A stretch of DNA of 17,533 bases from a virus (Duplodnaviria; Heunggongvirae; Uroviricota; Caudoviricetes), in the IMG/VR virus record IMGVR_UViG_2711768056_000003, positions 1-17,533 of that record. One strand, given 5' to 3'. The position numbers were made by a program, and so were the translations under genes. The first letter of the stretch is position 1. The number at the start of each line of letters is the position of its first letter. Shown piece by piece: positions 2,518 through 17,533 of the stretch. The notes under the pieces were generated by a model, which was not told the DNA's origin, did not search any database, and saw nothing but the letters and a program-made list of their open reading frames with translations.

Positions 2518-2702
2518 CGTCTTCCCCTCTTGCCTTGTTTGACCATCAGGACGCCGTTAACTATTACGTGACGCTCGCCTTTGCTGTCTCGGTTGTACTT
2601 GAGCACTGTTCCTCTTGCGCAGGAAAGCATCCTCGCCACTTCGGTCTGATTGCCTCGTGTCTGGATAAGAAGCTCTGGTATCGTTTGAATTGTGGCGTTC
2701 AT
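2514..2702 (-). CDS. ninH: NinH (small HTH DNA-binding protein)
   Basis: 62 aa; ...TIPELLIQTRGNQTEVARMLSCARGTVLKY... parallels lambda NinH (GNQTEVARRL.CSRGTV.KY); ATGA start/stop overlaps with Q and rusA. Confidence 0.8.
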   Translation of the reverse strand: MNATIQTIPELLIQTRGNQTEVARMLSCARGTVLKYNRDSKGERHVIVNGVLMVKQGKRGRR

Positions 2703-3061: not shown

Positions 3062-3348
3062 GGCTTAATCTTCCCCTCCTTCAGCAGGATCGCCTGCGTC
3101 CTGATCACGCCTTCGAGGTGATAAAGTCTGGCGTCTTTGTTGTCGAGATTATGGGTGCGTCGGTCGATTTCATCGTGACACGCGCTACAAGCCCATGCGC
3201 CAATCAGGTCGTCAGGTTTCATTCCCGTTCCGCAAATTCCAGCCATCCGGTAATGTGCCAGAACTGTAGTTTCAGGATTACCATTGCATACGCCGTAAAT
3301 ACGTACCTGGCATTCTCTGCCGCGTGCTTCTTTGCGTAGATTAGCCAT
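3058..3348 (-). CDS. DUF1364 / YbcO-like nin-region protein (Cys-rich, putative nuclease)
   Basis: 96 aa with conserved cysteines (CQVRIYGVCNGNPETTVLAH...CSACHDEID); typical position between roi and rusA in E. coli prophages. Confidence 0.65.
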   Translation of the reverse strand: MANLRKEARGRECQVRIYGVCNGNPETTVLAHYRMAGICGTGMKPDDLIGAWACSACHDEIDRRTHNLDNKDARLYHLEGVIRTQAILLKEGKIKP

Positions 3349-4070
3349 TAAGCAGCCTCCCCTGTTACTTTCAGCATTCCGTTATCGCGCAGCTTTCTGG
3401 TCAGCCACTGTTGACCACGCCCGGTGATTTTTGTGGTGAACGATATCTGTATTCCGTGATTTGTGTTGACCGCTGTTTCTTTCACTGTGAAATAGCCGCG
3501 ATCCATATATTCCTGCATTGGCACATTGCGCCGGGAACCTGAAGCAATAAGGATTTTGTGATCGCGCATCCACGCAAACAGTTTGTTTGGACCAATTCCA
3601 ACAACCTTTGCAAAGTTTCCAATCAAAATTCCGCTGGCCTCGCCAACGCGATCGGCAAACTCAACTTTAGGTGCGGCAATTGCGAGCTGGTTTTCCAGTT
3701 GCATTTTCTGCTCAGCAAGATCAGCAGCAAGGCGCAACGCTTCTGGTAGCGTTTTGGGGATATTAACCGCAGCTTCTTCAAGCTCTCGCCAACGGTCAAC
3801 AAGACGAGCGGTGAATTCCGGCGACAACTGAGCGACGACAATAATGCTGTCTCGCTTACCTTGTTCGCCCTCAAAAACGTAAGCCTCTACGCCACGAAGT
3901 AATCCTAAGTTATTGATTTTTTCGAAAACCACCATTGGGGGATTTCGGATCACACCTCGAGCCGCCAGTCGTTCAATAGATTGTTTCACCTTGTCATGAC
4001 GACTTCCCACCAACTCAGCGATTTCAATGCTTGTCATTTTGATGGCATTGCCATTTATTAACTCATTCAT
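3348..4070 (-). CDS. roi: Roi-like phage antirepressor / DNA-binding protein (Rha-like N-terminal domain + Ant/KilAC-like C-terminal domain)
   Basis: 240 aa; N-terminal HTH (MTSIEIAELVGSRHDKVKQSIERL) and C-terminal antirepressor-like domain; nin-region position as for HK022 roi. Confidence 0.75.
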   Translation of the reverse strand: MNELINGNAIKMTSIEIAELVGSRHDKVKQSIERLAARGVIRNPPMVVFEKINNLGLLRGVEAYVFEGEQGKRDSIIVVAQLSPEFTARLVDRWRELEEAAVNIPKTLPEALRLAADLAEQKMQLENQLAIAAPKVEFADRVGEASGILIGNFAKVVGIGPNKLFAWMRDHKILIASGSRRNVPMQEYMDRGYFTVKETAVNTNHGIQISFTTKITGRGQQWLTRKLRDNGMLKVTGEAA

Positions 4071-4239
4071 CGTCTTCTTCCTCGTACATTGAGCTATTCG
4101 GATCGCTCATCAGTTCTGCGCAGCAATCTGAGCACACGTGAACTTCCAGCACATGCAGCTTCTGACCGCAGTTAGCGCACGTTAAAGCCCGCTCGACGCT
4201 TTCTTTCTGGTATTGAATGGATTGGGATGGGCTAAGCAT
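4063..4239 (-). CDS. ninF: NinF (small Cys-rich protein)
   Basis: 58-aa ORF absent from the ORF track (below size cutoff), translated by hand: [58 protein letters not shown], very close to lambda NinF as I recall it; TAATG overlap with the upstream gene. Confidence 0.8.
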   Translation of the reverse strand: MLSPSQSIQYQKESVERALTCANCGQKLHVLEVHVCSDCCAELMSDPNSSMYEEEDDE

Positions 4240-4604
4240 TATTGGATTCTCTGCATCATGAGAAAGACAATCATGGCGGCGCGGAGGGGATTTTCATGTA
4301 TAGCTCGTTTAGATTTACAGTAGGCCACACCGCGTGCACCCCACTCGTCTTCATCGAGATTGATAATGCTAATCCTGTATTTTTCAATAATCGGCCATGC
4401 GTCTGCTGGGTTTGCGCATGGGTTAAAGGATCCGCGCTCAACTTCTACTTCAACTGCGTCTCCGTTTACAATGTCTCCCTCAAATGAGACAAACACCATA
4501 TCGCCATTCTCACCTTCTTTGTAATCCGGTGATCCGTTATGAATGGCTTCGAATACCGCCACGTTAATTTCAAAATCACTTAACTGTGAATAATCCATTG
4601 TCAT
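4239..4604 (-). CDS. Hypothetical acidic nin-region protein (start at MTMDYSQL...)
   Basis: ORF between ninE and ninF; ATGA overlap with the ninE stop; strongly acidic; no family recognised with confidence. Confidence 0.55.
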
Positions 4605-4777
4605 TTCCTCGCACGATGTCTTAGCCACCGGATATCCCACAGGTGAGCCGTGTAGTTGAAGGTTTTTACGTCAGATTCTTTTGGGATTGGCTTGCGTTTA
4701 TTTCTGGAGCGTTTCGTTGGAAGGTATTTGCAGTTTTCGCAGATGATGTCGGTGATACTTCGTCGCTGTCGCCTCAT
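4601..4777 (-). CDS. ninE: NinE
   Basis: Internal Met start gives [58 protein letters not shown], near-identical to lambda NinE; ATGA overlap with the upstream methylase gene. Confidence 0.85.
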
Positions 4778-5301
4778 GCCGCCCTCCTGACGCCCTGCCC
4801 GATCGCCATCAATGCCGCTTTGGATACGGTAGTAAACATCCGTCGAGGACTGATGAACGGTCGCCAAATCAGCAGCATGGAGCCTTTGCTGTTTCCCTTC
4901 TTCTCTAGCCCCGTCGATGGTTCGATAAAATTAATCCGTCCATCAGTGATAATACGAACTTCGTCAACACTCTCCAGAGCCTTGCTGAACCATCCGACTG
5001 ACATATCCTCTGGCACAAGCATAACTACCGTCTGTCGCTGTTGTATGCACTGCTCAGCGGCTTTTTCCACCCACGGCCTGATATTGCTGTACGGTGGGTT
5101 ATTCCAGATTGCACCGTGGCTTACCCACTCAGAATTGAGCGCGTCGTCGGCCTCAGTTAGCCAGTGAGCGCACAGAGCATTTTTGTCGCTCGCTGCCGAA
5201 TCCAGCCAGAATCCAAACTCAATATCCAGTGCATCAAAAAGCCAAAGCGGCGTTTGCCAGCAGTCCTTGTCGTGTGCTGGCGTATTTGATTTGATAGTCA
5301 T
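4774..5301 (-). CDS. Phage orphan N6-adenine DNA methyltransferase (Dam-like)
   Basis: Catalytic NPPY motif (WNNPPYSN); start at MTIKSNT... overlaps the ninB stop (ATGA); no adjacent restriction endonuclease gene. Confidence 0.8.
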
Positions 5302-5738
5302 GCAGCCCGATCTCCCCATCTCGCTTTCCACTCCAGAGCCAGTCTCGCTTCGTCTGACCACTTAACGCCACGCTCTGTACCGAATGCCTGTATAAGCTCT
5401 AATAGCTCCGCAAATTCGCCTACACGCATCCTGCTGGTTGACTGGCCTATTACCACAAAGCCATTCCCGGCAAGGTTAGGAACAACGTCCTGCTGCTTTA
5501 ATGCTGCGGTAAACACACACTTCCAGCTTTCTGCATCCAGCCAGCGACCATGCCATTCAACCTGACGAGAGACGTCACCAAGGCAAGCCCAAAGCTTTCG
5601 GTTTTGGTCTAAGCTGCGGTTGCGTTCCTGAATGGTTACTACGATTGGTTTGGTTGGGTCTGGAAGGATTTGCTGTACTGCGTGAATAGCGTTTTGCTGA
5701 TGTGCTGGAGATCGAATTTCAAAGGTTAGTTTTTTCAT
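5298..5738 (-). CDS. ninB: NinB (Orf-family recombination mediator)
   Basis: MKKLTFEIRSPAHQQNAIHAVQQILPDPTKPIVVTIQERNRSLDQNRKLWACLGDV... matches lambda NinB essentially throughout. Confidence 0.9.
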   Translation of the reverse strand: MKKLTFEIRSPAHQQNAIHAVQQILPDPTKPIVVTIQERNRSLDQNRKLWACLGDVSRQVEWHGRWLDAESWKCVFTAALKQQDVVPNLAGNGFVVIGQSTSRMRVGEFAELLELIQAFGTERGVKWSDEARLALEWKARWGDRAA

Positions 5739-5814
5739 GACTTCCCTCTCCCCCAAATAAAAAGGCCTGCGATTACCAGCAGGCCTGTTATTAGCTCAGT
5801 GATGTAGATGGTCA

Positions 5815-7251
5815 TCAGAATCCTCCTTTCTTCTTGGACTGCGGTTCCTCGCGTTCACGTCGGCGCATTTCAGCAGACTGTTGGTCTGTGTCATAAATAG
5901 CGCCATTTGCCTGAATGCAATACACCGTGCCGGTATTGCCATGACGATTGAGACGAAGGATTAGTTCGGTTTCACCAGGTGGAACACTGTCATCAAAAGC
6001 GCCTTCACGATGGATCCCAACCCAATAATCGCAATCCTGTTCAATCTGCCCTGTATCTCGTGAGTCACTTGGTAATGGGCGTTTATTGGTTCGGCTTTCC
6101 AGTGCGCGGTTAAGCTGCGTCAGAAGCACAACAACGCAATCAAGCTCTTTGGCAAGGTTCTTCAGTCCTTTGGTGATCATGCCGTAAGCAAGGTCGTTGC
6201 GATCGGCCTTCTCAGCGGTCATTAGTGTCAGGTAATCGACCAGAATCATGCCAACACATCCTTTTTCTCGCTTGATTCGACGGCTTTCGCTAACGATTTG
6301 AGCCAGAGATAATCCCGGCGTGTCGTCGATGTAAAGCAGGTCGATTTCACTCAAACGATTAGCTGTTTCGATCGCCCTGTTGAAGTCACCATCGTAATCA
6401 CCCTGATAGCCGTCATCAGCGTCATTTGTCGCCGGAAGGTAAAAAATATTCGGGTTAACACCAGACTTCTGCCCTACCAGTTTTTCCAGTATCTGATCAC
6501 CTGGCATTTCAAGGCTGAACATCAGAGCGGGCTTTTTCTCATGCACTGCGCAGTTGATTGCCATCTGGCTGTATAGCGTCGTTTTCCCCATCTTAGGGCG
6601 AGCGCCAATGACAAACAGAGAGCCTTTCACCAGACCTTTCGGTGACAGCATCCTGTCCAGCGATGGGATCCCTGTGCTCATTCCTCGTTGTTCGCCTGAC
6701 GGGTCAAATCGCTTCTCAAGGTCGCTAACCCAGTCTTCCATGACCTCACCAAATGAGCGAAGGCCGCGACGCGATCCGGTTTTTGCATGGTCTGTCAGTT
6801 GCGTGAAAATCGCCTGAATAGCTTCGTACTTCTGCGTTGCAGTCATTCCGTTGCGGGAATAGAGCAATTCCGTCGCTTCAGTCATGCGGTTGATGGCGTA
6901 GCGTTCCATTGCGGTTTCACGAACCTGCATTGCATAGGCAACGATGTTTGCTGCGCTTGGCGTATTCTTTGCGATCTCAGCGATATAAGCAAAACCGCCA
7001 ACAGACGCCGTTAACGATTTACGCTCCAGTTCATCGAAAAGCGTCAGGCCATCTACTGGCTTTTGCTCCCGGTGCATTCTGGTTATTTCTTCGAAAAGGA
7101 TTTTGTGTGGTCGGCTGTAAAATGAGTCAGGCTTCAGCATCGCCAGAACTTTCTGGACGCGCTCACTGCTGTCATCATCCAGAAGCAATCCACCAATCAC
7201 CGCCTGCTCTGCCTCGATGCTATGGGGCGGCGCATAAAAATTATCGGTCAT
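5815..7251 (-). CDS. DnaB-family replicative DNA helicase (P22 gp12-like)
   Basis: Walker A GARPKMGKTT; DnaB N-terminal motif SIEAEQAVIGGLLLD; ATG start at MTDNFY chosen rather than the GTG at 7266. Confidence 0.9.
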   Translation of the reverse strand: MTDNFYAPPHSIEAEQAVIGGLLLDDDSSERVQKVLAMLKPDSFYSRPHKILFEEITRMHREQKPVDGLTLFDELERKSLTASVGGFAYIAEIAKNTPSAANIVAYAMQVRETAMERYAINRMTEATELLYSRNGMTATQKYEAIQAIFTQLTDHAKTGSRRGLRSFGEVMEDWVSDLEKRFDPSGEQRGMSTGIPSLDRMLSPKGLVKGSLFVIGARPKMGKTTLYSQMAINCAVHEKKPALMFSLEMPGDQILEKLVGQKSGVNPNIFYLPATNDADDGYQGDYDGDFNRAIETANRLSEIDLLYIDDTPGLSLAQIVSESRRIKREKGCVGMILVDYLTLMTAEKADRNDLAYGMITKGLKNLAKELDCVVVLLTQLNRALESRTNKRPLPSDSRDTGQIEQDCDYWVGIHREGAFDDSVPPGETELILRLNRHGNTGTVYCIQANGAIYDTDQQSAEMRRREREEPQSKKKGGF

Positions 7252-8140
7252 CGTGTTCACCCTCACGAACTTTCAGGTAGGTATTATCGTTAAGCAGGAA
7301 ATCAAATCCCTTTTTGTGCCAGACGGTTCCGCGTTGATGGTTTGGGCGCTCTTCGAACATCCATCGGCAATTTTCGCCAACGTAGCTCAAATAATTTCTC
7401 CAGTCCTGCATCGTGAACCCATGCCCGTCAAGCTGGCGGGTTATCACTCCGGCTTTGCGCCAGAACGTTCGGATCTGGTTTTTACGCTTGTCATTCAGTG
7501 CGCGGATTCTTGGAGCTTCGGGAAGGATTTCGTGGTAAGCATCGACAACATCCTGACAGCTGACGGAAGGTTTTTTCTTGTCAGACTTTTTGTCTGCTGT
7601 GGCACTCTCTAATACGTCAGTATTAGAGATAATATTATTATATTCTTTATCTGTGGTAATTTGCTGGTAATCTGCTGGTACAGCATTGCTTACAGGCATT
7701 GGTATTGCTGGCTTTGAGGTGGTAATTTGCTGGTAATCTGCTGGTACAAAATTTGACTGATAATCGTCATATTTCTCTACCGAGAAAACTGAGAATTTAC
7801 CGTGTGAAACCCAGTCAATCATGCCGAGTTTTTTGAACTTTCTAAGCAGGTACTGAACGCGATCTGGTTTGAGTCCTGTTTCAAACGCCAGAGAGTTTCT
7901 ACCGCCAAGTAGCTTCCCTCTGCCTACCAGAATTTCTCCTGCGTCAGTCATTACATACTCAGGCGTATGCTTTGCTTTGAGGATTAAGTGAACCCACAGA
8001 TGCGCTGCTTCTGCATCCTTGTAAAACGGCACATCCATAATTTTACGGTGCAGCAAGGCATACCCCTTACCGCTGCTTTGATGCGGTTGTTGTAGCCTTC
8101 TGGCCTCTCTGGCTTCGGCTAGATTAGATATGTTACTCAT
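7241..8140 (-). CDS. Replication initiator (O-like: N-terminal DNA-binding domain, repeat-containing linker, DnaT-like C-terminal domain)
   Basis: Immediately upstream of the helicase and downstream of cII; linker contains duplicated peptide [10 protein letters not shown] encoded by the iteron repeats; C-terminal region resembles the helicase-loading domain of phage initiators. Confidence 0.8.
7615..7760. repeat. Candidate phage origin of replication: iterons plus adjacent AT-rich segment inside the initiator gene
   Basis: Two perfect 30-bp direct repeats GTGGTAATTTGCTGGTAATCTGCTGGTACA at 7653..7682 and 7729..7758, each built of TGCTGGTA sub-repeats; further TTGCTGG copies between; AT-rich stretch 7620..7650 on the C-terminal side, as at lambda ori. 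Confidence 0.6.
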
Positions 8141-8279
8141 GACCTTTCTCCTTCTGCATCAGCTTCACTTTTTCCAACTCAGCCCGGAATCGACCAGGCT
8201 GCTTGAAGCTGGACAGGAAGCGATCACGTAGTATGTGTTTGTGAATTTTGTCCTGGTAAGGACTGAGTTGTTTTGTCAT
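8133..8279 (-). CDS. Small basic hypothetical protein (48 aa) between cII and the initiator gene
   Basis: Hand-translated [48 protein letters not shown]; SD AGGAG 7 nt upstream of ATG; stop overlaps the initiator start codon. Confidence 0.45.
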
Positions 8280-8311
8280 AATTACTCCTGTGGATTGATC
8301 CAGTAATTCCC

Positions 8312-8608
8312 TCAGAATTGCATATCAATTTGCTTAAAATCCTCGGTGGCGGCCGGGGATTTTTTCTTTGTGATTTCATCAAGCGCATACTTAAAAGCCC
8401 TGCTAATCGGACTGATGTCTGATGCCATTCCGAAAGCACACAAGACCGAAGCAATAAATCTCCAGTCCGTTCTGCTTATCTTCGATTCATGACAGCCAAT
8501 CATCTTTGCCAGACCGCGCTGGGTAAGCGTTGACAGGTTGATGAGTAAATCAGTTTCAGCGCGATCAACGTCACGCTGTGATAGTTTGCTGTAACTTGTT
8601 CTTTCCAT
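8312..8608 (-). CDS. cII: CII-like transcriptional activator
   Basis: 98 aa; C-terminus [18 protein letters not shown] parallels lambda CII KKRPAATERSEQIQMEF; HTH region present; located between cro and the replication genes. Confidence 0.8.
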
Positions 8609-8693
8609 TTCTTAAGATTTCCAATAGTGAATAGTTAGTTGAAAGGTATGCGTGGAAACGCATATGGCCTTGGTTGGTCAGATATTCTGGGAT

Positions 8694-8739
8694 TCGCTTT
8701 TCAGCGACGTAGGACGAATGTCCGTTGTTACAAAGAGCG
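8694..8739 (-). promoter_or_regulatory. nutR candidate (boxA, small hairpin, boxB hairpin)
   Basis: Minus-strand RNA 8 nt after the cro stop: CGCTCTTTGTAACAAC (boxA-like), GGAC-auuc-GUCC, uacg, then UCGCU-GAAA-AGCGA (5-bp stem, GAAA tetraloop); same architecture as the nutL candidate. Confidence 0.6.
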
Positions 8740-8746
8740 GGGTTAC

Positions 8747-8974
8747 TTATGCTGCCAGAAGGTTCTTTTTGCTTATTTCAAGCAATTCGCTTGCTTGATA
8801 TTTGCCACCAGAAATCTCTTCGATTTTTGAGGCGTATTTCGTTTTCCCAAAAAACTCAGTCTTAGGGAGGAAGCCGTTTTTGAGCCACTTATAGACAGCC
8901 CTTTCGCTAACTCCACAAGCCTTCGCAACTTCAGGGATGCCGACACCTTTAATCGGCTCATCAAGATTTTGCAT
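8747..8974 (-). CDS. cro: Cro-like repressor (HTH)
   Basis: 75 aa with HTH (IPEVAKACGVSERAVYKWLKNG); divergent from cI across the operator region; SD AAGGG upstream. Confidence 0.75.
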   Translation of the reverse strand: MQNLDEPIKGVGIPEVAKACGVSERAVYKWLKNGFLPKTEFFGKTKYASKIEEISGGKYQASELLEISKKNLLAA

Positions 8975-9053
8975 AGGAATATCCCTTTTTCGTACTTTTA
9001 GTACGCATTATGGTTGAACTGAAAGTTTTTGCAAGTGCTTTAGTATCGTACTC
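8975..9053. promoter_or_regulatory. OR switch region: PR for cro on the minus strand, PRM for leaderless cI on the plus strand, candidate operators
   Basis: PR: -35 TTGCAA (9029..9034), 16-bp spacer, -10 CATAAT (minus strand of 9007..9012). Candidate operators: CGTACTTTTAGTACG (8991..9005) and TTTAGTATCGTACTC (9039..9053). cI ATG has no SD. Confidence 0.6.
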
Positions 9054-9761
9054 ATGGTTCAGAATGAAAAAGTGCGCAAAGAATTCGCCCAGCGGCTAGC
9101 GCAAGCCTGTAAAGAAGCTGGTCTTGATGAACATGGTAGGGGTATGGCCATAGCCCGTGCCCTTTCTCTTTCGTCCAAAGGCGTTAGCAAATGGTTTAAT
9201 GCTGAGTCTTTACCGCGTCAGGAAAAAATGAATGCGCTTGCGAAATTTCTAAACGTTGATGTTGTTTGGCTTCAGCACGGCACTTCGTTAAATGGAGCGA
9301 ATGATGAAGATACTCTTTCATTTGTTGGCAAATTAAAAAAAGGGTTAGTGCGCGTGGTTGGTGAGGCAATTCTTGGTGTTGATGGTGCCATCGAGATGAC
9401 CGAAGAGCGCGATGGGTGGCTCAAGATTTATAGTGATGATCCAGATGCCTTTGGTCTTCGTGTGAAAGGAGACAGCATGTGGCCCAGAATAAAATCAGGA
9501 GAATATGTACTCATTGAGCCTAACACCAAAGTATTCCCGGGTGATGAGGTGTTTGTCAGAACCATCGAAGGACACAACATGATCAAGATTCTTGGCTATG
9601 ACAGAGATGGAGAATACCAGTTTACAAGCATCAACCAAGACCACAGACCAATAACGTTGCCTTATCATCAAGTAGCAAAGGTGGAGTATGTGGCTGGTAT
9701 TCTGAAGCAGTCCCGCCATCTGGATGACATCGAGGCAAGGGAGTGGCTGAAAAGTTCGTGA
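9054..9761 (+). CDS. cI: CI prophage repressor (N-terminal HTH + C-terminal LexA/S24-like autocleavage domain)
   Basis: 235 aa; N-terminal HTH; C-terminal domain with GDSMWP serine motif and downstream lysine typical of S24 self-cleaving repressors; divergent from cro. Confidence 0.9.
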   Translation: MVQNEKVRKEFAQRLAQACKEAGLDEHGRGMAIARALSLSSKGVSKWFNAESLPRQEKMNALAKFLNVDVVWLQHGTSLNGANDEDTLSFVGKLKKGLVRVVGEAILGVDGAIEMTEERDGWLKIYSDDPDAFGLRVKGDSMWPRIKSGEYVLIEPNTKVFPGDEVFVRTIEGHNMIKILGYDRDGEYQFTSINQDHRPITLPYHQVAKVEYVAGILKQSRHLDDIEAREWLKSS

Positions 9762-9878
9762 CTTCATCGTCACATAGCTGGTAACCAATGGCCTGAAGAG
9801 ACGTTTGGGTGATATATGTGAAATGCATATATTGATATAAATGCAGCAATATCAAATAGTTAAAAGGTTATATTTTTA

Positions 9879-10259
9879 ATGAATGATCTTGATAAGAAAA
9901 AGTACGACCAAGTTATTGATTCTGTGAACTTCGCCCTTAGATCGTTGTCAGAGTTATTCGAAGCCCATGGAATGCATGGGATGTATGATCTAACGAATCC
10001 AAGCCTTGATGAGCTAAAATTAGTGTTTACAAGGATGAAAAACGGTGTTGACTCTATTGCTCAAAGCTTTGAGCACATGGTAGAGACAGCAAAGGATATG
10101 GATGCCGCAAGTGCAAGCATAAATGTTATGAACATCAAACAAGGATTGATGTATGCTGAATCACTATTGCTTGCTGTAGAGAAATTAGACTATGATAAAT
10201 GTGTGGAAGCAAATACGCAGATAAAAACCCACGATCTTCCACCAACCCAATGGCCTTAA
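9879..10259 (+). CDS. Hypothetical 126-aa protein in the rex position (candidate lysogen-expressed cargo gene)
   Basis: ORF directly downstream of cI on the same strand, in a visibly AT-rich segment; predicted soluble, helical; no family recognised. Confidence 0.6.
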   Translation: MNDLDKKKYDQVIDSVNFALRSLSELFEAHGMHGMYDLTNPSLDELKLVFTRMKNGVDSIAQSFEHMVETAKDMDAASASINVMNIKQGLMYAESLLLAVEKLDYDKCVEANTQIKTHDLPPTQWP

Positions 10260-10328
10260 TAGTAAATCAAGATTTCATATAGTCTATTTGAACTAGGCTA
10301 GTACCATAAAATAAACCGAGGAAACGCA

Positions 10329-10430
10329 ATGAAAACCATGTCCACTCTGCACAAAGATGCAATGACCCTGAGATCTCTCATTAACGAGATTCTGGCTCGC
10401 TCGTCAGCACACACCAAAAAAGCCGCATAA
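10329..10430 (+). CDS. Small hypothetical ORF (33 aa) downstream of the 126-aa gene
   Basis: Hand-translated MKTMSTLHKDAMTLRSLINEILARSSAHTKKAA; SD GAGGA 7 nt upstream; followed within 11 nt by an intrinsic terminator. Confidence 0.4.
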   Translation: MKTMSTLHKDAMTLRSLINEILARSSAHTKKAA

Positions 10431-10440
10431 TGCCTACATA

Positions 10441-10469
10441 ACCCGGCCTCAGCGCCGGGTTTTCTTTGC
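10441..10469 (+). terminator. Rho-independent terminator closing the cI-side (immunity) transcription unit
   Basis: ACCCGGC-cucagc-GCCGGGU (7-bp GC-rich stem) followed by TTTTCTTT. Confidence 0.7.
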
Positions 10470-10636
10470 CTCACGATCGCCCTCCCATATTTAATAGCCG
10501 CAAATGTGGTAAACCGCGAACCAACTCACCAGCAATAACCACTCCAACTACAGACCAATCTGCAGCATTTACAAAAATAAATTTCCTTATATATCAAAAT
10601 CATATATCGCAGCATTAATAAATCACAAAATTTCGT

Positions 10637-10676
10637 ACCAATAGTTCTTGATAATGTCGAACTATTGGTTCATTAT
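10637..10676 (+). promoter_or_regulatory. Candidate pL promoter overlapped by a perfect inverted repeat (candidate operator)
   Basis: -35 TTGATA (10648..10653), 17-bp spacer, -10 CATTAT (10671..10676); 11-bp perfect inverted repeat ACCAATAGTTC (10637..10647) / GAACTATTGGT (10659..10669) spans the -35 and spacer; TTTCGTAC upstream shares an 8-mer with OR. Confidence 0.45.
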
Positions 10677-10722
10677 TGTCACATCAGCAGGACGCTGGAA
10701 GCCAAACGGAACAGACTGGCAG

Positions 10723-10768
10723 GCTCTTTAAACAACGTCGAACTCTCGACTACGTGGCTGAAAAGCCA
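10723..10768 (+). promoter_or_regulatory. nutL candidate (boxA, small hairpin, boxB hairpin)
   Basis: GCTCTTTAAACAACG (boxA-like, rrn-boxA-like), GTCGA-acuc-UCGAC, uacg, then UGGCU-GAAA-AGCCA (5-bp stem, GAAA tetraloop); between pL and N. Confidence 0.6.
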
Positions 10769-10866
10769 GATCACCCAACCACATAAGCTGTGGGATGCAA
10801 TGCCGAAGCAACCGTCTCAGGAGGGGCTTCGAGATTGCATCGCCAAAGTTTATTCGGGAGGAATCT

Positions 10867-11139
10867 ATGTCCAGAAAAACAGAATTTAAAGGCACCGCAG
10901 CTTCTCGCCGTAGAGCTCGTCGTGCAAATCTGCAAAGTCAGGAGGCGATCAGCTCCGACAAGCTACACAGGCCAACCCCTTCACGAGTGGTCTTGCAATG
11001 CAAGCGCAAACCAGCAATGAGAGCAGAAGTAATAACACTGACAACGTTGACCAGAAAATATGAAGGCTCAACTTGTCTTCCAAACGTAGCTCTTTACGCG
11101 GCAGGCTACCGTAAATCCAAACAACTGACAGCGAGGTAA
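10867..11139 (+). CDS. N: N-like transcription antiterminator (arginine-rich motif)
   Basis: Start at MSRKTEFKGTAASRRRARRANLQ with ARM resembling lambda/P22 N; SD GGGAGG upstream; first gene after pL/nutL. Confidence 0.75.
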   Translation: MSRKTEFKGTAASRRRARRANLQSQEAISSDKLHRPTPSRVVLQCKRKPAMRAEVITLTTLTRKYEGSTCLPNVALYAAGYRKSKQLTAR

Positions 11140-11141
11140 TT

Positions 11142-11594
11142 ATGGATTTAAGTAAATTAGAAAGCTCTTTGGAAGCATCAGTAAAAAAATTTATATCAGT
11201 AATTGATGAAAAAACTGAAGATATTAAGAAAGCAAATATTATCGAACTTGTAGAAACAAGAACCAGCACATTTGAACATCTTCCTGATGATGTCCGGTCA
11301 GCGGCAATTCACGTATATGTAACGGCACTAAGCAATATTGAACCCCCAATTGATGAAGAATCAAGAGATATTCAGAGAAAACGACTTGAAATGTTAGCCA
11401 GCAACATTATCGCTGGTTTCACACGGCTCTTAGCAAAAAAGCCTGCCAGTGAAGCTATTCGCCAGCAGGCTCAGGTAATGATTAATCAGGCAGAAACTAT
11501 TTCACGTGAGCGAAAAGCATTTGATAAATCGGTTTCTGAACTTCCAACACCTCAACCGCAGCCGCTGAACCTTCCTTCTCAACAAACTGAATAA
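11142..11594 (+). CDS. Hypothetical 150-aa protein, translationally coupled to N (ral/sieB position)
   Basis: Starts 2 nt after the N stop with SD GAGG; AT-rich 5' half; C-terminal 98 bp overlap a convergent minus-strand ORF. Confidence 0.5.
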   Translation: MDLSKLESSLEASVKKFISVIDEKTEDIKKANIIELVETRTSTFEHLPDDVRSAAIHVYVTALSNIEPPIDEESRDIQRKRLEMLASNIIAGFTRLLAKKPASEAIRQQAQVMINQAETISRERKAFDKSVSELPTPQPQPLNLPSQQTE

Positions 11595-11751
11595 CTTCAT
11601 CAAGATTCTTTTTTGCATTTGTTGATTGCTCAGGCGGCATAGCAGAAACAATCGAAATGATTGCTTGCTGGAGCGCGAGGTTTTCAGTGCTCAGTTTTGA
11701 AACTCTGTCGTTTAAATCCTCAATGATTTTAACAAGAGATACATCTGACAT
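11497..11751 (-). CDS. Hypothetical 84-aa protein encoded antisense to the pL operon
   Basis: Strong SD AAGGAG 6 nt upstream of ATG; helical, coiled-coil-like sequence; opposite orientation to all neighbouring early-left genes. Confidence 0.5.
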   Translation of the reverse strand: MSDVSLVKIIEDLNDRVSKLSTENLALQQAIISIVSAMPPEQSTNAKKNLDEVIQFVEKEGSAAAVEVLEVQKPIYQMLFAHVK

Positions 11752-11764
11752 GTGAACTCCTTAT

Positions 11765-11811
11765 TTTGACTGTGGAAACAACAGTCTACCCATTTCCTTT
11801 GACTGTGGAAA
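11765..11811. repeat. Two perfect 14-bp direct repeats TTTGACTGTGGAAA, the first overlapping a 6-bp-stem hairpin
   Basis: Copies at 11765..11778 and 11798..11811; GACTGT (11768..11773) pairs with ACAGTC (11781..11786); immediately upstream of the 84-aa minus-strand gene start. Confidence 0.6.
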
Positions 11812-11961
11812 GTGAAGGAACCACCGAGCCTGATGTGGTTAAAAGACAGGCACACTAATAAACACTGCACTGTGTATTCATTCCAACGAGTGAATACACG
11901 GAGCAATGTCGCTCGTAACTAAACAGGAGCCGACTTGTTCTGATTATTGGAAATCTTCTTT

Positions 11962-11988
11962 GCCCTCCTATGTGAGGGCAATTTTTTG
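11962..11988 (+). terminator. Rho-independent terminator (tL1-like) in the pL operon
   Basis: GCCCTC-cuaugu-GAGGGC followed by AATTTTTTG; directly precedes the SD of the next gene. Confidence 0.6.
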
Positions 11989-11999
11989 ACGGAGGATAT

Positions 12000-12311
12000 A
12001 TGAAATTACGTGTCTGGCATATCCCGCAAGTACCTATGAAGCCGTTCATTGTAGAAGTGGCAAGTGTTGAAGAGGGTGTTCGCCTGATGGACGCACTGGC
12101 TGATTATGACGCCTTTCAGTATGACAACAACATCAAGCCTGATTACTGCAATGCTAACGGCCTTGAGATGTGGGATGAGAGCCTTACCGATGAAGATTTA
12201 TCAGAGATGGGGCTTACTGATCGCTGGGTGGATTGGTACAGCGAATGCCAATGTTACGACGACCCACGTAAATATCTCGAAAGCCTGAAAGAAGAAACAT
12301 CAGCCGCCTAA
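12000..12311 (+). CDS. Hypothetical strongly acidic 103-aa protein
   Basis: SD GGAGG 5 nt upstream; large excess of Asp/Glu over Lys/Arg; early-left operon position. Confidence 0.6.
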   Translation: MKLRVWHIPQVPMKPFIVEVASVEEGVRLMDALADYDAFQYDNNIKPDYCNANGLEMWDESLTDEDLSEMGLTDRWVDWYSECQCYDDPRKYLESLKEETSAA

Positions 12312-12386
12312 GCGCGGCTTTACCGCATACCAATAACGCTTCACTCGAGGCGTTTTCGTTATGCAATCAAACAGAAGGAGCATCCT

Positions 12387-12557
12387 ATGCAACAGTTCGC
12401 TATTGCAGGGGCGGCATCGGTTCGCCCTTTCAACCCGATTTTATCGGTACAGCATTCACGAAAAAATATTTTAACCGGAGCAGACTTTAAACAACCAAGA
12501 ATGAAAAGTTTGCTCGAAAAGCTTTGGGATATTTTGAAACAACAAGGCCGTCCATGA
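12387..12557 (+). CDS. cIII: CIII-like protein (FtsH/HflB inhibitor protecting CII)
   Basis: Hand-translated 56 aa MQQFAIAGAASVRPF...LLEKLWDILKQQGRP; N-terminal MQ.AIAG and C-terminal L.DIL.Q.G.P parallel lambda CIII; SD AAGGAG. Confidence 0.65.
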   Translation: MQQFAIAGAASVRPFNPILSVQHSRKNILTGADFKQPRMKSLLEKLWDILKQQGRP

Positions 12558-12664
12558 GTTTTACAGATAACTGGTCAGACGAAGAATTCATTCGTCAGAT
12601 GAACAAAATGCTCAATCAGCACAAAGAACAGGAGAAAGATGATGATTCTGACTCTGAAAGATGA
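12554..12664 (+). CDS. Small acidic ORF (36 aa), translationally coupled to cIII (kil position)
   Basis: ATGA overlap with the cIII stop; MSFTDNWSDEEFIRQMNKMLNQHKEQEKDDDSDSER; overlaps the start of the next ORF in another frame. Confidence 0.3.
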   Translation: MSFTDNWSDEEFIRQMNKMLNQHKEQEKDDDSDSER

Positions 12665-12950
12665 GCGTGAAATATCGCAAATAATCGCAAGTTTTACTGA
12701 TGAAGATTACGAACGAATCAAAAGTGAAGTTGATCGCCTCTGCAAACGTTGCGACCCAATAAGCGAAATGCTTCGCTCATATAAACCAGATGAACACACT
12801 AAGGACGCTATCGACTGGCTGGAAGATTATGACTGTAACTATCAGGAAAAAGCCGCTGAATGGTTCTGGGATGCAATAACCGAAAGAGTTAAGGCTGAAT
12901 ATGCCTTCGCAATATTCAAACGCAGACATATTTATGGAGAAGCTGCATGA
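12639..12950 (+). CDS. Hypothetical 103-aa protein upstream of recT
   Basis: Long ORF with ATGA overlap to recT; acidic; no family recognised. Confidence 0.55.
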   Translation: MMILTLKDEREISQIIASFTDEDYERIKSEVDRLCKRCDPISEMLRSYKPDEHTKDAIDWLEDYDCNYQEKAAEWFWDAITERVKAEYAFAIFKRRHIYGEAA

Positions 12951-13858
12951 GCAATATCGTTGAATTCGTTAAACAGCAAGAGCAGTTATTCTGCGGAGCA
13001 TTGACTGAACAGACGGTGACATGGGCTAAGGAAAGCCAGTTTGCAATTCAGTATTTCCAGAAAAATGATTACCTGGCTAAAACGGCACTGGCAAATCCAA
13101 CCAGCGCACAGAACGCCATCATCAATGTTGCGGCGATCGGCATCACCTTAAACCCGGCCAGCAAACTGGCTTATCTGGTTCCTCGCGACGGCATGGTGTG
13201 CCTTGATATCAGTTATATGGGATTGCTCCATATTGCAATGGAGTCTGGTGTTATCTCATGGGGTCAGGCAAAACTTGTTCATGCTAACGATACCTATGAG
13301 TCAAACGGGCTTGATAAAGCACCAACCCATAAATACAACGCCTTCGGTGATCGTGGTGATATCGTTGGCGTTTACTGCACAGTTAAGACGCCAGCAGGTG
13401 ATTATCTAACGGAAGAGATGAGTCTGGCTGAAATTGAGGCTGTAAGGAAAACAAGCAAGGCGGCATTCAGCGATAAAGGACCATGGGTAAATCACTGGAA
13501 TGAGATGGCGCGAAAGACGGTCGTAAAGCGTGCAAGCAAGTATTGGCCTAAGGCATCACGTCTTGATAGTGCTATTCACGTACTAAACGAAGAAGAAGGT
13601 GTGTGGACTGAACCAGTTATGCCGCACAAATCAGAGGAAGATATCCGCGAAGATGAACGGAAACGCCAGCAGGAAATAACGGATAAAGCACAACTTCTTT
13701 GCGATGAAATGGCTCAGGCAGAAAACATGGATGATTTGAAGCGATATTTTGCAGAAGCATATCGCCTGACATCTGGAATGAAATTGCAGCAGAACGTACA
13801 AGCCATTTACATAGAATGCAAAGCGAAACTGGAGGTTGCCAGTGAGCAAACTGTATGA
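12947..13858 (+). CDS. recT: RecT-family single-strand annealing recombinase
   Basis: 303 aa; GPWVNHWNEMARKTVVKRASKYWP parallels Rac RecT GPWVTHWEEMAKKTAIRRLFKYLP. Confidence 0.9.
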   Translation: MSNIVEFVKQQEQLFCGALTEQTVTWAKESQFAIQYFQKNDYLAKTALANPTSAQNAIINVAAIGITLNPASKLAYLVPRDGMVCLDISYMGLLHIAMESGVISWGQAKLVHANDTYESNGLDKAPTHKYNAFGDRGDIVGVYCTVKTPAGDYLTEEMSLAEIEAVRKTSKAAFSDKGPWVNHWNEMARKTVVKRASKYWPKASRLDSAIHVLNEEEGVWTEPVMPHKSEEDIREDERKRQQEITDKAQLLCDEMAQAENMDDLKRYFAEAYRLTSGMKLQQNVQAIYIECKAKLEVASEQTV

Positions 13859-14324
13859 AATAGCCAATGAATACGCAAAGCTGATGGATTCAGATTTAGA
13901 GCCAGAGATGATTGCTGACACAATAGAAGGCATGGAAGGAGAATTTACCGATAAAATAGAGCAACTTCTTGCCATTATTAAAAATGAATCTGGTTATGCT
14001 GAACGCCTCAAGGAAGAGGCAAAGTCACTGAATGAGCGAGCCGCAGTAATTCAAAATAAGATTGAGAGCATCAAATCATATATAGCGTCATCGCTTGAAA
14101 TGGTTGGCAAGAAAAAGATTCGAGCAGGTATTCACCAGGTAACAATCCGCAAACCGTCAGAAACTGTAGAAATCATCGACTCAAGCGCCCTTCCTCCTGA
14201 ATACGTTGAGTTTGAAACGACAATTAAAGCCGACAAACTGGCAATCAAACACCAACTAAAAGCAGGAATAAATATCCCCGGCGCTCAACTCAAAGTTGGG
14301 AAACCTTCACTTCTTATCAAATAA
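13842..14324 (+). CDS. Gp157/Gam-like protein (possible host-nuclease inhibitor); GTG start
   Basis: About 160 aa with N-terminal coiled coil; SD GGAGG 6 nt before GTG at 13842; overlaps the recT 3' end; family assignment from memory only. Confidence 0.5.
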   Translation: MSKLYEIANEYAKLMDSDLEPEMIADTIEGMEGEFTDKIEQLLAIIKNESGYAERLKEEAKSLNERAAVIQNKIESIKSYIASSLEMVGKKKIRAGIHQVTIRKPSETVEIIDSSALPPEYVEFETTIKADKLAIKHQLKAGINIPGAQLKVGKPSLLIK

Positions 14325-14335
14325 CGGTATCGACT

Positions 14336-14650
14336 ATGAAAAAGACTCCATGGGAGAAATGGGAAGTCGATTTCTTGCGCGAGGTAGCGGCGACAATGCC
14401 AGTTGAAGTTATCGCTGAAAAACTGGAAAGGACTGAAAAAGCAGTAATGGCGAAAGCAACAAGGATTGGCGCTGACATTGTTAGCCGACTTCGTGGAAGA
14501 CGATGGACAAGAGCCGAAGTATCACTTTTCGGTAAGTTCTCCGCAGAAGAAATAGCAATTGCAACCTGCCGCTCAATTTATTCAGTAAGAGCTATGCGAT
14601 ACAAGCTAAAAAAACTCGATGAAGAAAGAGCAGGCATACGAATAAATTAA
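14336..14650 (+). CDS. Hypothetical 104-aa protein with an internal tandem duplication of an HTH-like segment
   Basis: Residues WEKWEVDFLREVAATMPVEVIAEKLERTEKAVMAKATRIG and RRWTRAEVSLFGKFSAEEIAIATCRSIYSVRAMRYKLKKL share a repeated pattern. Confidence 0.6.
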   Translation: MKKTPWEKWEVDFLREVAATMPVEVIAEKLERTEKAVMAKATRIGADIVSRLRGRRWTRAEVSLFGKFSAEEIAIATCRSIYSVRAMRYKLKKLDEERAGIRIN

Positions 14651-14666
14651 CATGGAGTAATTAACA

Positions 14667-14948
14667 ATGAAGCTAAACATCGACCTTGGAAAATACGTTA
14701 TTACCGGAACCAAACACGACCTGATTCTTAGCGAAAGAGGAATTATCAAAGAAGGTGAGAATGCAGGGAAAGAAACACTAAGCCGTATCGGTTATTACAG
14801 CAAGTTTGAGCATCTGGTTAAAGAGTTATGCAACCGTGAAATCCTGTTATCTCAGGCGCAGACGCTACAGGATATTCAGCAGCATATCGAGACTTTAGGT
14901 GTGTCACTTAGCATGGCCGTTGACCAGTTCGTGGAGAGTAAATCATGA
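14667..14948 (+). CDS. Hypothetical 93-aa protein
   Basis: ORF with SD GGAG upstream in a tightly packed operon; no family recognised. Confidence 0.55.
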
Positions 14949-15109
14949 GAGGACTTGCATACAATCCCGGCATTCTTCCGGCAGAAATGATTATTCTCCA
15001 ACGCGTAAAGCCAATGCCATCGAGAGAGGAATTGCTTAAGAGAAATTCTTTTCCGTCAGTAAATCAAAACAAATATCTGAATGCGATGTGGCGGAGTGGG
15101 AAGAAATGA
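14945..15109 (+). CDS. Small hypothetical ORF (54 aa), translationally coupled
   Basis: ATGA overlap with the upstream gene stop and ATGA overlap with the downstream gene start; [54 protein letters not shown]. Confidence 0.35.
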
Positions 15110-15579
15110 AACAAATGTCACTAATTGAGATAGATGGTTTTCTGAAAGGTAAATGCATCCCACGAGATTTAAAGGTTAACGAAACAAACGCTGAATATCT
15201 TGTCCGTAAGTTCGGTGAACTTGAATCAAAACTGGAAACGGCGTTGCGGGAGTGCCGTTCTGCTGGAATCACGATTGATAACCTTGAAGCAAAGTGCGCG
15301 GCGCTGGCTGCTGAAAAAGAGAAATTCGCTGTCGAATGTGCAGCAACAAAGATCGCCATTGCGTATCTGAAATCAGGCCGACAGGACTTTTCACTTAACA
15401 CCCCAGCCACCGATGCTTTCCTGGCTGAAGTGCGGGCGCAGGGGGTGGAGATGTTTGCACAGAAATGTAACTCAAAATCCGAACAGTCATTTGCATCTGA
15501 TATACGCGATAACTGGAAACTACTCGGTGAACATGCCACTGACTTTGCCGCAGAGCTTCGCAAAGGAGACAACCAGTGA
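15106..15579 (+). CDS. Hypothetical 157-aa protein (start at [11 protein letters not shown])
   Basis: Long ORF; ATG at 15106 preferred over the GTG at 15088; helical, coiled-coil-like. Confidence 0.55.
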
Positions 15580-16115
15580 GCAAGATTGACTATCAGGCAC
15601 TGCGTGAAAAGGCAGAGAAAGCAACGTGTGGTGTGTGGTCGCTCGAATATGGAGAGAGCCGATTTGATTGTGATGATGCGCTAATTCATCGTGAAGTTGT
15701 TGGATATCTTCCCATTTGCAGAATTGAAGGAGCGCATCCAGAAAGCGGTTTCGATGAAGATTTCCAAATGGAACAGCAGGCCAATGCTGAATTCATCGCC
15801 GCAGCCAATCCCGCTACCGTGCTGGCGCTGCTGGATGAGCTGGAAGCAGCAGAGAACAACCTTATTGATAGTGAGTGCCACGGTGCTGAACTTGAAGAAT
15901 CGCTACGCGATAAGCAGGCGTTACTTGAATCATCAGAGAAGCGCATTGCTGAGCTATCGCGCCACCTCCAATGCGCGCACGACTTTATCGAACATACAGA
16001 GGCGTTTGGCTACGAAGCTTCAAACGGGATTCTGTGCTGTGGTGATGCGCAGTGGAATATCGATTCTTCTAAGGCAGCGTTGGCATCAGCTGGCAGCGTC
16101 AACGGGGAGGGCTAA
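15576..16115 (+). CDS. Ead/Ea22-like protein
   Basis: N-terminus [25 protein letters not shown]... typical of Ead/Ea22-like prophage proteins; ATGA overlap with the upstream gene. Confidence 0.7.
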   Translation: MSKIDYQALREKAEKATCGVWSLEYGESRFDCDDALIHREVVGYLPICRIEGAHPESGFDEDFQMEQQANAEFIAAANPATVLALLDELEAAENNLIDSECHGAELEESLRDKQALLESSEKRIAELSRHLQCAHDFIEHTEAFGYEASNGILCCGDAQWNIDSSKAALASAGSVNGEG

Positions 16116-16118
16116 CCC

Positions 16119-16913
16119 ATGACATTCACCAAAGAGCAGTTGATCGAAAAACTTAAGCACAGAATCTCTGTCGCTTCGGAATTTCCTGAGTCAGAAAAAG
16201 CTCAAATGGATCTTGATCTGGCGCGTATCGCGCTGGCATCGCTGGAGGCAGAACCAGTTGCTTATATTTTCAAACATCCGGCCGGAAAATTATTCTGGGC
16301 TTTGACGGATGAAAGCAATAAAGATCAATCGGACGTTATTCCTGTTTATGCCGCCCCTCCAGTGCCAGTAGTACCGGAAGAAAAACCAATGCCTAATCCT
16401 CTTAGCATGTACGCGGTTGATGCTGTTGCCGCTATTGCAGAGGTGAGAGGCTGGAACGCCTGCCGCGCCGCCATGCTTCATAGTGCCGAACCTGCAAGTA
16501 ATCATGAAGAGTTGCCGCTTGATTATCTCCAAGGTCAAAAAGATGGTCTTGAATGGGCTGCGCAGCTTGCAGAAGCAAATCACCCACAAACTGGCGACTG
16601 GCTTTACGATGACCCGCTGGAGCTGGCTAAAGCTATCAGAAAAGGTCCTGACATGCCCGAATTCGATGGACCAACTCCGGTGACTCCGGATAGTTGGATA
16701 AGCTGTAGTGAGCGAATGCCAGAAAAGAACCAGAACGTACTTATTTCGGTGAATTTCGATAGTGATCTGGTTGAACCGCTAATATGCTCCGCACGCTATA
16801 CAGGAAGCACATTCCGGCGAGGAGAAGCAACGATTAAGCCGGGTAATGGTATTGAGCAGGCAACTCACTGGATGCCTCTACCAGAACCGCCTCAGGAGGT
16901 TAACCGTGGCTAA
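16119..16913 (+). CDS. DUF551-domain prophage protein
   Basis: C-terminal WISCSERMPEKNQNVLISVN...ATHWMPLPEPP resembles the DUF551 domain common near int/xis in enterobacterial prophages. Confidence 0.7.
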   Translation: MTFTKEQLIEKLKHRISVASEFPESEKAQMDLDLARIALASLEAEPVAYIFKHPAGKLFWALTDESNKDQSDVIPVYAAPPVPVVPEEKPMPNPLSMYAVDAVAAIAEVRGWNACRAAMLHSAEPASNHEELPLDYLQGQKDGLEWAAQLAEANHPQTGDWLYDDPLELAKAIRKGPDMPEFDGPTPVTPDSWISCSERMPEKNQNVLISVNFDSDLVEPLICSARYTGSTFRRGEATIKPGNGIEQATHWMPLPEPPQEVNRG

Positions 16914-17013
16914 CCTGCAACTTGCCGTTAAAGGTGAATAACAATCCTCGCACTCGCGGGGATTTCTTTTATCTGAACTCGCTACGGCGAGTTTTGTTTT
17001 ATGGAGATGATAA

Positions 17014-17181
17014 ATGCACTTCCGAGTCACAGGTGAATGGAATGGAGAACCATTCAACAGAGTTATCGAAGCAGAGGACATCAACGACTGCTATAACCAC
17101 TGGATGATATGGGCGCAGATAGCGCATGCAGACGTAACCAATATTCGAATTGAAGAACTGAAAGAACACCAAACCGCCTGA
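17014..17181 (+). CDS. Small hypothetical ORF (55 aa)
   Basis: MHFRVTGEWNGEPFNRVIEAEDINDCYNHWMIWAQIAHADVTNIRIEELKEHQTA; SD GGAG upstream; stop codon sits inside a terminator hairpin. Confidence 0.4.
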   Translation: MHFRVTGEWNGEPFNRVIEAEDINDCYNHWMIWAQIAHADVTNIRIEELKEHQTA

Positions 17182-17196
17182 TGGCGGTTTTTTATT
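17171..17196 (+). terminator. Rho-independent terminator
   Basis: AAACCGCC-ugau-GGCGGUUU followed by TTTTTATT. Confidence 0.65.
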
Positions 17197-17238
17197 GCCT
17201 GATTTGCAGGTTCGATTCCCTATTCGGAGATAGCACTC

Positions 17239-17439
17239 ATGCAACACGAACTACAGCCTGATTCACTGGTTGATTTGAAATTCATCATGGCCGATACTGG
17301 CTTTGGTAAAACCTTCATCTATGACCGGATTAAGTCCGGCGACCTTCCTAAAGCCAAAGTTATCCACGGACGAGCAAGATGGTTATATCGTGACCATTGT
17401 GAATTTAAAAATAAGCTCTTAAGCCGCGCCAATGGGTAA
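17239..17439 (+). CDS. xis: Excisionase (Xis/AlpA-family HTH)
   Basis: 66 aa small basic winged-helix-like protein at the end of the early-left operon, where xis precedes int. Confidence 0.65.
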   Translation: MQHELQPDSLVDLKFIMADTGFGKTFIYDRIKSGDLPKAKVIHGRARWLYRDHCEFKNKLLSRANG

Positions 17440-17533
17440 AATAGCGGGTAAAATATTTCTCACATCTAAAAAACACCATTCCAATCAATCCCCTGCCGCT
17501 TCAAGTAGATGTCTGCAGGGGACACCATTTATC

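Follow-up and report, generated by a model that had tools for sequence, protein, structure and literature searches.

A mosaic string of four small genes behind the recombination module of a lambdoid prophage

We analysed four small, tightly packed open reading frames (ORF1 to ORF4) that occupy positions 14336-15579 of a lambdoid prophage, the IMG/VR virus record IMGVR_UViG_2711768056_000003 (Caudoviricetes; positions 1 to 17,533, a stretch of 17,533 nucleotides (nt) hereafter called the window). The reading that we prefer, and hold with moderate confidence, is that the block corresponds to a string of genes found behind the recombination (Rec) module in many lambdoid and P22-like phages, within their early-left (pL) operon. 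Under this reading it consists of four early genes that assort independently, with ORF1 a putative DNA binder and ORF4 a putative inhibitor of OLD-type nucleases. Our own analyses show the reality of the genes, their family membership, the helix-turn-helix (HTH) repeat structure of ORF1, synteny, independent assortment, and the hypervariability of the ORF4 position.

All four ORFs are real genes under constraint at the protein level. On the plus strand, ORF1 (14336-14650) encodes 104 amino acids (aa) with an isoelectric point of 10.0, ORF2 (14667-14948) encodes 93 aa, ORF3 (14945-15109) encodes 54 aa with an isoelectric point of 10.7, and ORF4 (15106-15579) encodes 157 aa from its ATG. A GTG at 15088 would extend the latter to 163 aa, and we retained the ATG because 74 of the 78 distinct homologues begin with MKQM(S/T)LIE. 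Eleven nucleotides separate the stop codon of the upstream Gp157 gene from ORF1, and 16 nt with a GGAG motif separate ORF1 from ORF2. ATGA overlaps join ORF2 to ORF3 (14945-14948) and ORF3 to ORF4 (15106-15109), and a GTGA overlap (15576-15579) combines the stop of ORF4 with the start of the Ead/Ea22-like gene. The first-pass annotation of this DNA, made from the sequence alone, had described four coupled genes of these sizes with short gaps and ATGA overlaps, in exact agreement with the ORF list and the sequence. The substitutions that separate each gene from a homologous locus fall mostly in third codon positions (counts for positions 1/2/3: 8/3/39 for ORF1 against SEN22, 3/1/7 for ORF2 against Sf6, 12/3/23 for ORF3 against P22, and 1/1/13 for ORF4 against HK140), and this bias shows that the four are constrained coding genes. 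A 178-aa antisense ORF (15036-15572) was discarded as a shadow of ORF4.

The same annotation had recognised none of the four proteins, and here it was mistaken: ORF1 belongs to phrog_323 and phrog_11492, ORF2 to DUF5405, ORF3 to DUF2737, and ORF4 to phrog_614 with EaE. The genes are in fact already catalogued, being near-identical in phage HK140 and in other phages, and they form a typical mosaic accessory stretch of lambdoid phages. By megablast, the first 1119 of the 1244 nt of the block are 96.7% identical to gp39-gp36 of HK140, a match that covers nt 1-349 of the 474 nt of ORF4 and leaves its last ~40 codons outside, and pieces of the block occur in 212 phage records. HK140 (gp39-gp36), mEpX1 (gp32-30), Kapi1, Gally, Dewey, and a prophage of Escherichia coli A30 share genes and gene order after RecT/Gp157, with ORF1-ORF3 92-99% identical at the nucleotide level within the HK140 group. 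They differ in that mEpX1, Kapi1, Gally, and Dewey lack ORF2, and in that HK140 gp36 departs from ORF4 over its last ~40 codons. Searches of the block against NCBIfam gave no meaningful match, those against the PADLOC defence-protein models none better than E = 0.01, and sequence searches of the PDB with ORF1-ORF4 and the Ea22-like gene nothing significant. The four protein sequences also found no match in the supplements of the accessory-gene screen of Silas et al.

We surveyed this genomic slot using ORF3 as an anchor, calling and clustering the neighbouring genes in 80 IMG/VR loci and in annotated phages (the IMG/VR scan took the place of a scan of genome contigs, which had returned 6 loci). 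Directly upstream of the DUF2737 gene we found Abc2 in 68 loci (10-nt gap), ORF1 in 13 (16-nt gap), ORF2 in eight (ATGA overlap), and another gene in one. Ahead of ORF1 itself lies Gp157 in 12 loci, or a 189-aa protein in the case of SEN22, and ORF2 follows either ORF1 or Abc2 (the latter in Sf6, HK446, and ES3). The complete four-gene order recurs in HK140, in E. coli A30, and in some IMG/VR contigs. Given these many different combinations, we conclude that ORF1-ORF4 assort independently and do not make up one system. The order Rec module, ORF1, optional DUF5405, DUF2737, EaE-like gene is nevertheless kept in Enterobacter prophages at ~50% protein identity. Among 5426 complete E. coli genomes, ORF1 is present in 299, ORF2 in 342, and ORF3 in 1367; some piece of the stretch 13836-16115 is found in 2393 of them, and at least 80% of it in a single one.

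ORF4 provides the link to counter-defence. Judged by its sequence, it is a member of the Oad2/EaE family: it matches phrog_614 with E = 5e-48, as does P22 EaE (E = 4.6e-55), which is 32% identical to the C-terminal part of ORF4. With phrog_368, ORF4 shares only its C-terminal part, and it has no match to the Pfam family Ead_Ea22 (PF13935), which the next gene (15576-16115) does match. HK446 gp27, or Oad2, came out of a random genomic library as a protein that suppresses P2 OLD toxicity; it abolishes the defence by OLD, to which it binds directly, and stops tRNA cleavage by the OLD tetramer (bioRxiv 10.64898/2026.07.10.737580, a July 2026 preprint). The same study describes Oad2 as 'related to P22 EaE' and reports that a homologue from HK75, 54% identical to it, gives no protection against P2 OLD. 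That HK446 gp27 is Oad2 was confirmed when our comparison with HK75 gp28 gave the same 54% identity as published. In HK446, gp27 lies directly after the DUF2737 gene, as ORF4 does here, and the two proteins align over their whole length (BLASTP, E = 1e-54, 51% identity). They share residues 1-70 (~94% identical), a 14-residue motif, and an LRKG-NQ ending, and show no sequence relationship over the middle and C-terminal thirds.

The position of ORF4 is the hypervariable one of the block. The gene after DUF2737 in 85 loci encodes 78 distinct proteins, which range from 42 to 301 aa and group into 55 clusters when identity and coverage thresholds are both set to 90%. At least 80% identity to ORF4 over residues 1-36 is nonetheless seen in 74 of these 78 proteins, and the entropy of the alignment columns is ~0 as far as residue ~36 and lies above 2 bits from residue ~60 onwards. 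In the window, the constant N-terminal module (residues 1-36) corresponds to 15106-15213 and the variable part to 15214-15576, both on the plus strand; the latter encodes a heptad-like hydrophobic stretch, the 14-residue motif, and a divergent C-terminus ending in LRKGDNQ. From its sequence pattern, the boundary at codon 36 behind DUF2737 looks like a point of in-frame cassette exchange. Some proteins at this position end in other domains, including a DUF551-like 'WMPLPEPP' end and forms of 235-301 aa. The first-pass annotation had called the region a known hotspot for variable anti-defence and host-takeover genes and had proposed to compare the slot across related prophages, as variable cargo or conserved core. 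The anti-defence part gains support from the action of Oad2 on P2 OLD and from the phenotypes of Abc1 in a screen (see below), and the stretch is indeed strongly mosaic. The slot does not, however, hold free-form cargo: its gene order is fixed as far as Enterobacter.

ORF1 is a minimal, basic, two-repeat Myb/SANT-like protein. Its repeats span residues ~5-46 (14348-14473, plus strand; helices at residues 8-17, 23-30, and 34-44) and ~55-97 (14498-14626, plus strand; helices at 59-66, 70-77, and 81-102). An internal tandem duplication of an HTH-like segment of roughly 40 aa had been proposed at first pass. Aligning the two ORF1 halves pairwise does not reveal it (score 21, compared with 21.4 +/- 4.2 for shuffled sequences), and yet it is real: hhalign matches repeat 1 to repeat 2 over 40 columns (P = 3.6e-4), and the AlphaFold2 model (predicted local distance difference test 84.5) shows a pair of three-helix bundles with a linker of ~14 residues between them. 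The family alignment contains 152-aa relatives with a third copy of the ~45-residue unit, and this third copy matches repeat 2 of the ORF1 family with E = 6.5e-11. The best fold matches of the model in the PDB, all weak, are bipartite HTH DNA binders (Cbp1, DUX4, Pax6, and the Mos1 and Tc3 transposases).

An exhaustive profile search with ORF1 retrieved 1964 representative proteins, many of 300-900 aa with four to nine tandem copies of the unit. These multi-repeat relatives match Myb_DNA-binding (E = 2e-41), Myb_DNA-bind_6, GcrA, or Sigma70_r4_2 of Pfam, and a Sigma70_r4_2 match is found in 12 of the 17 members of the ORF1 family. ORF1 has in common with the Myb/SANT-like and the GcrA-N or sigma-70 region 4 repeats the three-helix units and the repeat signature W-x2-E...(I/V)A...R(S/T)...V...R; it differs from those proteins in having just two degenerate repeats and no sigma-binding or effector domain. 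Its homologues trail Rec modules of several kinds. They lie directly after RecT/Gp157 in HK140, mEpX1, Kapi1, Gally, and Dewey, directly after a pair of ExoVIII-like and phrog_11517 genes in SEN22 and Enterobacter hormaechei (51% identity), and, for a three-repeat homologue in Salmonella, directly after a lambda-Red-like Gam/YqaJ module. In one Salmonella prophage (locus L101, 4456-5007) the three-repeat homologue is followed by a Dam-type methylase and not by DUF2737. GcrA reads methylated DNA, and this neighbour may be noteworthy given the GcrA-like flavour of the repeat.

ORF1 resembles Abc1 of P22 in architecture, in position, and in the PHROG it matches, and is not a demonstrated orthologue. 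In addition to phrog_11492, ORF1 matches phrog_323 (E = 2.8e-20, profile positions 145-269), to which Abc1 also belongs (E = 1.3e-23, positions 93-190). Both are tandem-HTH proteins of ~100 aa encoded right after an annealing-protein module, Abc1 directly following Erf in P22. The second repeat of Abc1 is similar (PRWSDDEDKRM...VAKILGRSEESVKSRLSRL), and Abc1 matches Sigma70_r4_2 and, weakly, Myb. The two settings differ in that the prophage has Gp157 and lacks Abc2, and in that ORF2 has no counterpart in P22. Genetic data indicate that Abc1 aids phage recombination and is non-essential (PMC12315714), and its expression on its own perturbs a P4 satellite prophage. In a screen for counter-defence phenotypes, this HTH protein triggered cell death that depends on a P4 satellite in ECOR15 and sensitised several wild hosts to phage (bioRxiv 10.1101/2023.04.06.535777; PMC12373910). 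In the record of phage Gally (OV696608), the homologue of ORF1 goes by the name 'Anti-RecBCD protein 1, similar to P22 Abc1', a similarity that BLASTP does not show.

ORF2 and ORF3 are small soluble proteins without enzymatic motif. ORF2 passes the threshold of the Pfam family DUF5405 (PF17399; 25.5 bits against a cutoff of 21.6, E = 1.8e-5, covering residues 9-78 of 93) and matches phrog_154 (E = 2.6e-31), and RefSeq names an identical protein 'DUF5405 family protein'. It shares 96% identity with Sf6 gp24 and ~34% with P2 Orf83. Its homologues are carried by P2-like phages, where they lie between the TraR-like orf82 and gene A, by N4-like phages, and by a T4-like phage of Morganella. Its predicted fold, four beta strands followed by two helices, resembles other DUF5405 models and has no other informative match. 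The label of phrog_154, 'replication initiation protein', is unsupported for ORF2 and apparently stems from the adjacency of P2 orf83 to gene A; it has spread to the DUF5405 genes in the RefSeq records of HK140, Sf6, HK446, and ES18. A role of ORF2 as a substitute for Abc2 was also rejected: the two are present together in Sf6, HK446, and E. coli ES3. BLASTP finds no similarity between them.

ORF3 is the conserved anchor gene behind the Rec region. It passes the threshold of the Pfam family DUF2737 (PF10930) with 103.1 bits against a cutoff of 25, covers positions 1-52 of the 53 in the profile, and is 74% identical to P22 Orf56; the family also includes HK97 gp38. An unannotated DUF2737 gene, 99% identical to ORF3, lies in the Gally record (locus L002, 3332-3496). 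A match in Taishania pollutisoli (scaffold22; locus L016, 4001-4090) covers the C-terminal half of DUF2737 alone, at 72% identity over residues 23-54, in a non-enterobacterial genome and with no nucleotide similarity to the lambdoid loci. Because this match and phrog_4684 both span only that half, the conserved core of DUF2737 may consist of its C-terminal ~30 residues. The literature on DUF2737 and DUF5405 yielded nothing beyond a passing mention of one or the other in a single paper, the description of a phage genome.

The flanking genes place the block within the early-left operon. A cI-type repressor (9054-9761, with Peptidase_S24 and HTH_3 domains) and the N antiterminator (10795-11139) are on the plus strand, and cII, the DnaB-type helicase, and Q are all on the minus strand; the plus strand rightward of cI is therefore the pL operon. 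After N and a gp17-type exclusion gene (12000-12311, plus strand) comes the Rec module, with a RecT-family single-strand annealing protein (12947-13858, plus strand; Pfam RecT PF03837, E = 2.9e-32) and a Sipho_Gp157 protein, a putative RecBCD antagonist of 'MuGam type' (13836-14324, plus strand; Pfam E = 2.4e-38, phrog_253 E = 7.7e-54). The latter starts with TTG inside the end of RecT (23-nt overlap) and is the last recognised gene of the module upstream of the block; a published classification of lambdoid phage modules, that of HK140 included, assigns the Gp157 family to the MuGam-type RecBCD antagonists (PMC12315714). RecT and Gp157 upstream and Ead_Ea22 downstream uphold the location proposed at first pass, an early-left operon setting with the recombination genes on one side and an Ea22-like gene on the other. 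The term 'b-region-like' used there was imprecise: the counterpart of 14336-15579 in lambda is the exo-xis region within the pL operon. The exo-xis genes (ea22, orf61, orf63, and orf60a) occupy an equivalent compartment and are, as here, expressed early, non-essential, and mosaic; we detected no sequence relationship between them and ORF1-ORF4.

A 103-aa gene of phrog_3486 (12639-12950, plus strand), whose end forms an ATGA overlap with the start of RecT, accompanies Rec modules of several kinds. In SEN22 a copy with 97% identity lies ahead of another kind of module (ExoVIII-like), and Enterobacter has a 102-aa gene in the equivalent place (locus L097, 2306-2614). It may be an unrecognised partner of the Rec module. 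Downstream of the block follow the Ead/Ea22-like gene (15576-16115, plus strand; PF13935, E = 2.1e-21), a DUF551 gene (16119-16913, plus strand), and an AlpA-like excisionase gene. The first two are patchworks that each match many different PHROGs, with phage matches (90-94% identity) confined to the first ~270 nt or to short internal segments. We found no terminator-like site on the plus strand inside the block. The earliest ones lie between the DUF551 and excisionase genes, where two successive plus-strand terminator-like hairpins and one bidirectional hairpin (16943-16994 and 17171-17190) enclose a 55-aa ORF (17014-17181). The long pL transcript unit probably ends at these hairpins, ahead of xis and int. 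An Rfam scan of the whole window returned no RNA family, and the repeats and base composition of the block are unremarkable.

How might these genes act? We propose that ORF1-ORF4 would be expressed early, together with the Rec genes. OLD-type nucleases fire once the Rec module of the phage itself disables RecBCD, the candidate antagonist here being Gp157. RecBCD antagonists in Rec modules have been published as triggering OLD and licensing Gabija, and this action of Gp157-type antagonists provides a rationale for an Oad2-like gene nearby. ORF4 would then be a stoichiometric inhibitor that binds an abortive-infection nuclease of the OLD type (ABC ATPase-TOPRIM), and its variable part would determine the nuclease allele that it blocks. 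ORF1 would bind a bipartite DNA site as a monomer and, because it lacks an effector domain, would act by occupancy. ORF2 and ORF3 may bind host or phage proteins.

Several observations weigh against this reading. ORF4 is closer to HK75 gp28 (60% identity), which is reported to be inactive on P2 OLD, than to Oad2 (51%), so that inhibition of P2 OLD by this particular allele is, from such comparisons, doubtful. The loci used to describe the ORF4 position were chosen for a near-identical adjoining DUF2737, and the constant N-terminus may in part be a shared recombination block. ORF1 itself falls below every Pfam threshold, including those of Myb and Sigma70_r4, its sole match being to HTH_12 (20.7 bits against a cutoff of 21.4). 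BLASTP gives no alignment between ORF1 and P22 Abc1, and hhalign of ORF1 against Abc1 family alignments reaches only P = 0.0018 and a probability of 15%, over single repeats and with a shallow Abc1 alignment. Naming a gene 'Abc1' by its position has failed before, when HkaK of HK620 turned out to be SSB (PMC5928155). Finally, the phenotypes of Oad2 and Abc1 are drawn from the literature, and DNA binding by ORF1, the activity of this ORF4 allele, and the roles of ORF2 and ORF3 are our proposals from them and from the sequences.

The same location could point to accessory factors of phage recombination or replication, Abc1- or Arf-like helpers that tune RecT/Gp157, host RecBCD, or SSB. The string always lies directly behind the Rec module, whatever its type, P22 Abc1 has the genetic effect on recombination cited above (PMC12315714), and homologues of DUF5405 adjoin the replication gene A in P2 (Orf83) and an SbcC-like gene in the Morganella phage MP1. 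However, the adjacency may merely mean that the accessory region begins where the Rec module ends, and Zheng et al. left these genes out when they defined Rec-module genes. ORF2 is optional and ORF4 hypervariable, unlike core recombination partners, and Oad2 targets OLD with no reported role in recombination. We thus regard a helper role as rather unlikely. Modulation of the lysis-lysogeny decision and of host physiology, in the manner of the lambda exo-xis genes (orf60a, orf61, orf63, and ea22), seems quite unlikely to us. The location between the recombination genes and xis is equivalent, transcription is early, an Ea22-like gene adjoins the block, and ORF1, if it binds DNA, could serve as a regulator; the exo-xis genes have been shown to shift lysogenisation and induction (PMC7093339, PMC3824215, PMC5575149). 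Yet none of ORF1-ORF4 resembles the lambda exo-xis proteins that have been studied, ORF3, ORF4, and the Ea22-like gene have no sequence match to a solved structure, and ORF4 lacks the Ead_Ea22 match. The extreme allelic diversity at the ORF4 position also suits an arms race better than regulation.

The translational coupling through ATGA overlaps and the recurrence of the full order in HK140, E. coli A30, and some IMG/VR contigs would be expected of one co-functional system, such as a toxin-antitoxin pair, a superinfection exclusion system, or a defence cassette. This is strongly disfavoured, and we consider it extremely improbable. ORF1 occurs without ORF2 in 13 loci, ORF2 follows Abc2 in Sf6, HK446, and ES3, and DUF2737 stands alone after Abc2 in 68 loci; it was this independent assortment that led us to rule out a single four-gene system. 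The block has no PADLOC defence matches either, and its genes lie in the lytic early operon and are not a moron expressed from the prophage.

A bolder version of the string of independently assorting early genes that we favour can be formulated, though we think it unlikely to hold as a whole. ORF1, the optional DUF5405 gene, DUF2737, and the Oad2-like gene would together form a 'tail' of lambdoid Rec modules dedicated to counter-defence. Every phage that disables RecBCD would require it in order to silence the guardians that respond to the loss of RecBCD (OLD, Gabija, and retrons), with a separate sensor blocked by each protein. Cassettes would be exchanged at the ORF4 position, where the constant 36 residues give the homology or a common docking function for swaps of specificity modules, and ORF1 would be a Myb-type binder that reprograms the transcription of rival elements, such as P4-like satellites.

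The genes of the block are common across E. coli, and the sequence finding itself is ordinary; its interest rests on the link to Oad2, on the hypervariable ORF4 position, and on ORF1 as a Myb-repeat protein that trails Rec modules. If ORF1 were a true analogue of Abc1, it would offer a second and more widespread entry to a function in recombination or host takeover that has lacked an explanation since 1987. Should the ORF4 position be an arms-race locus directed against OLD-type nucleases, its dozens of natural alleles would constitute a panel for studying the specificity between inhibitors and nucleases.

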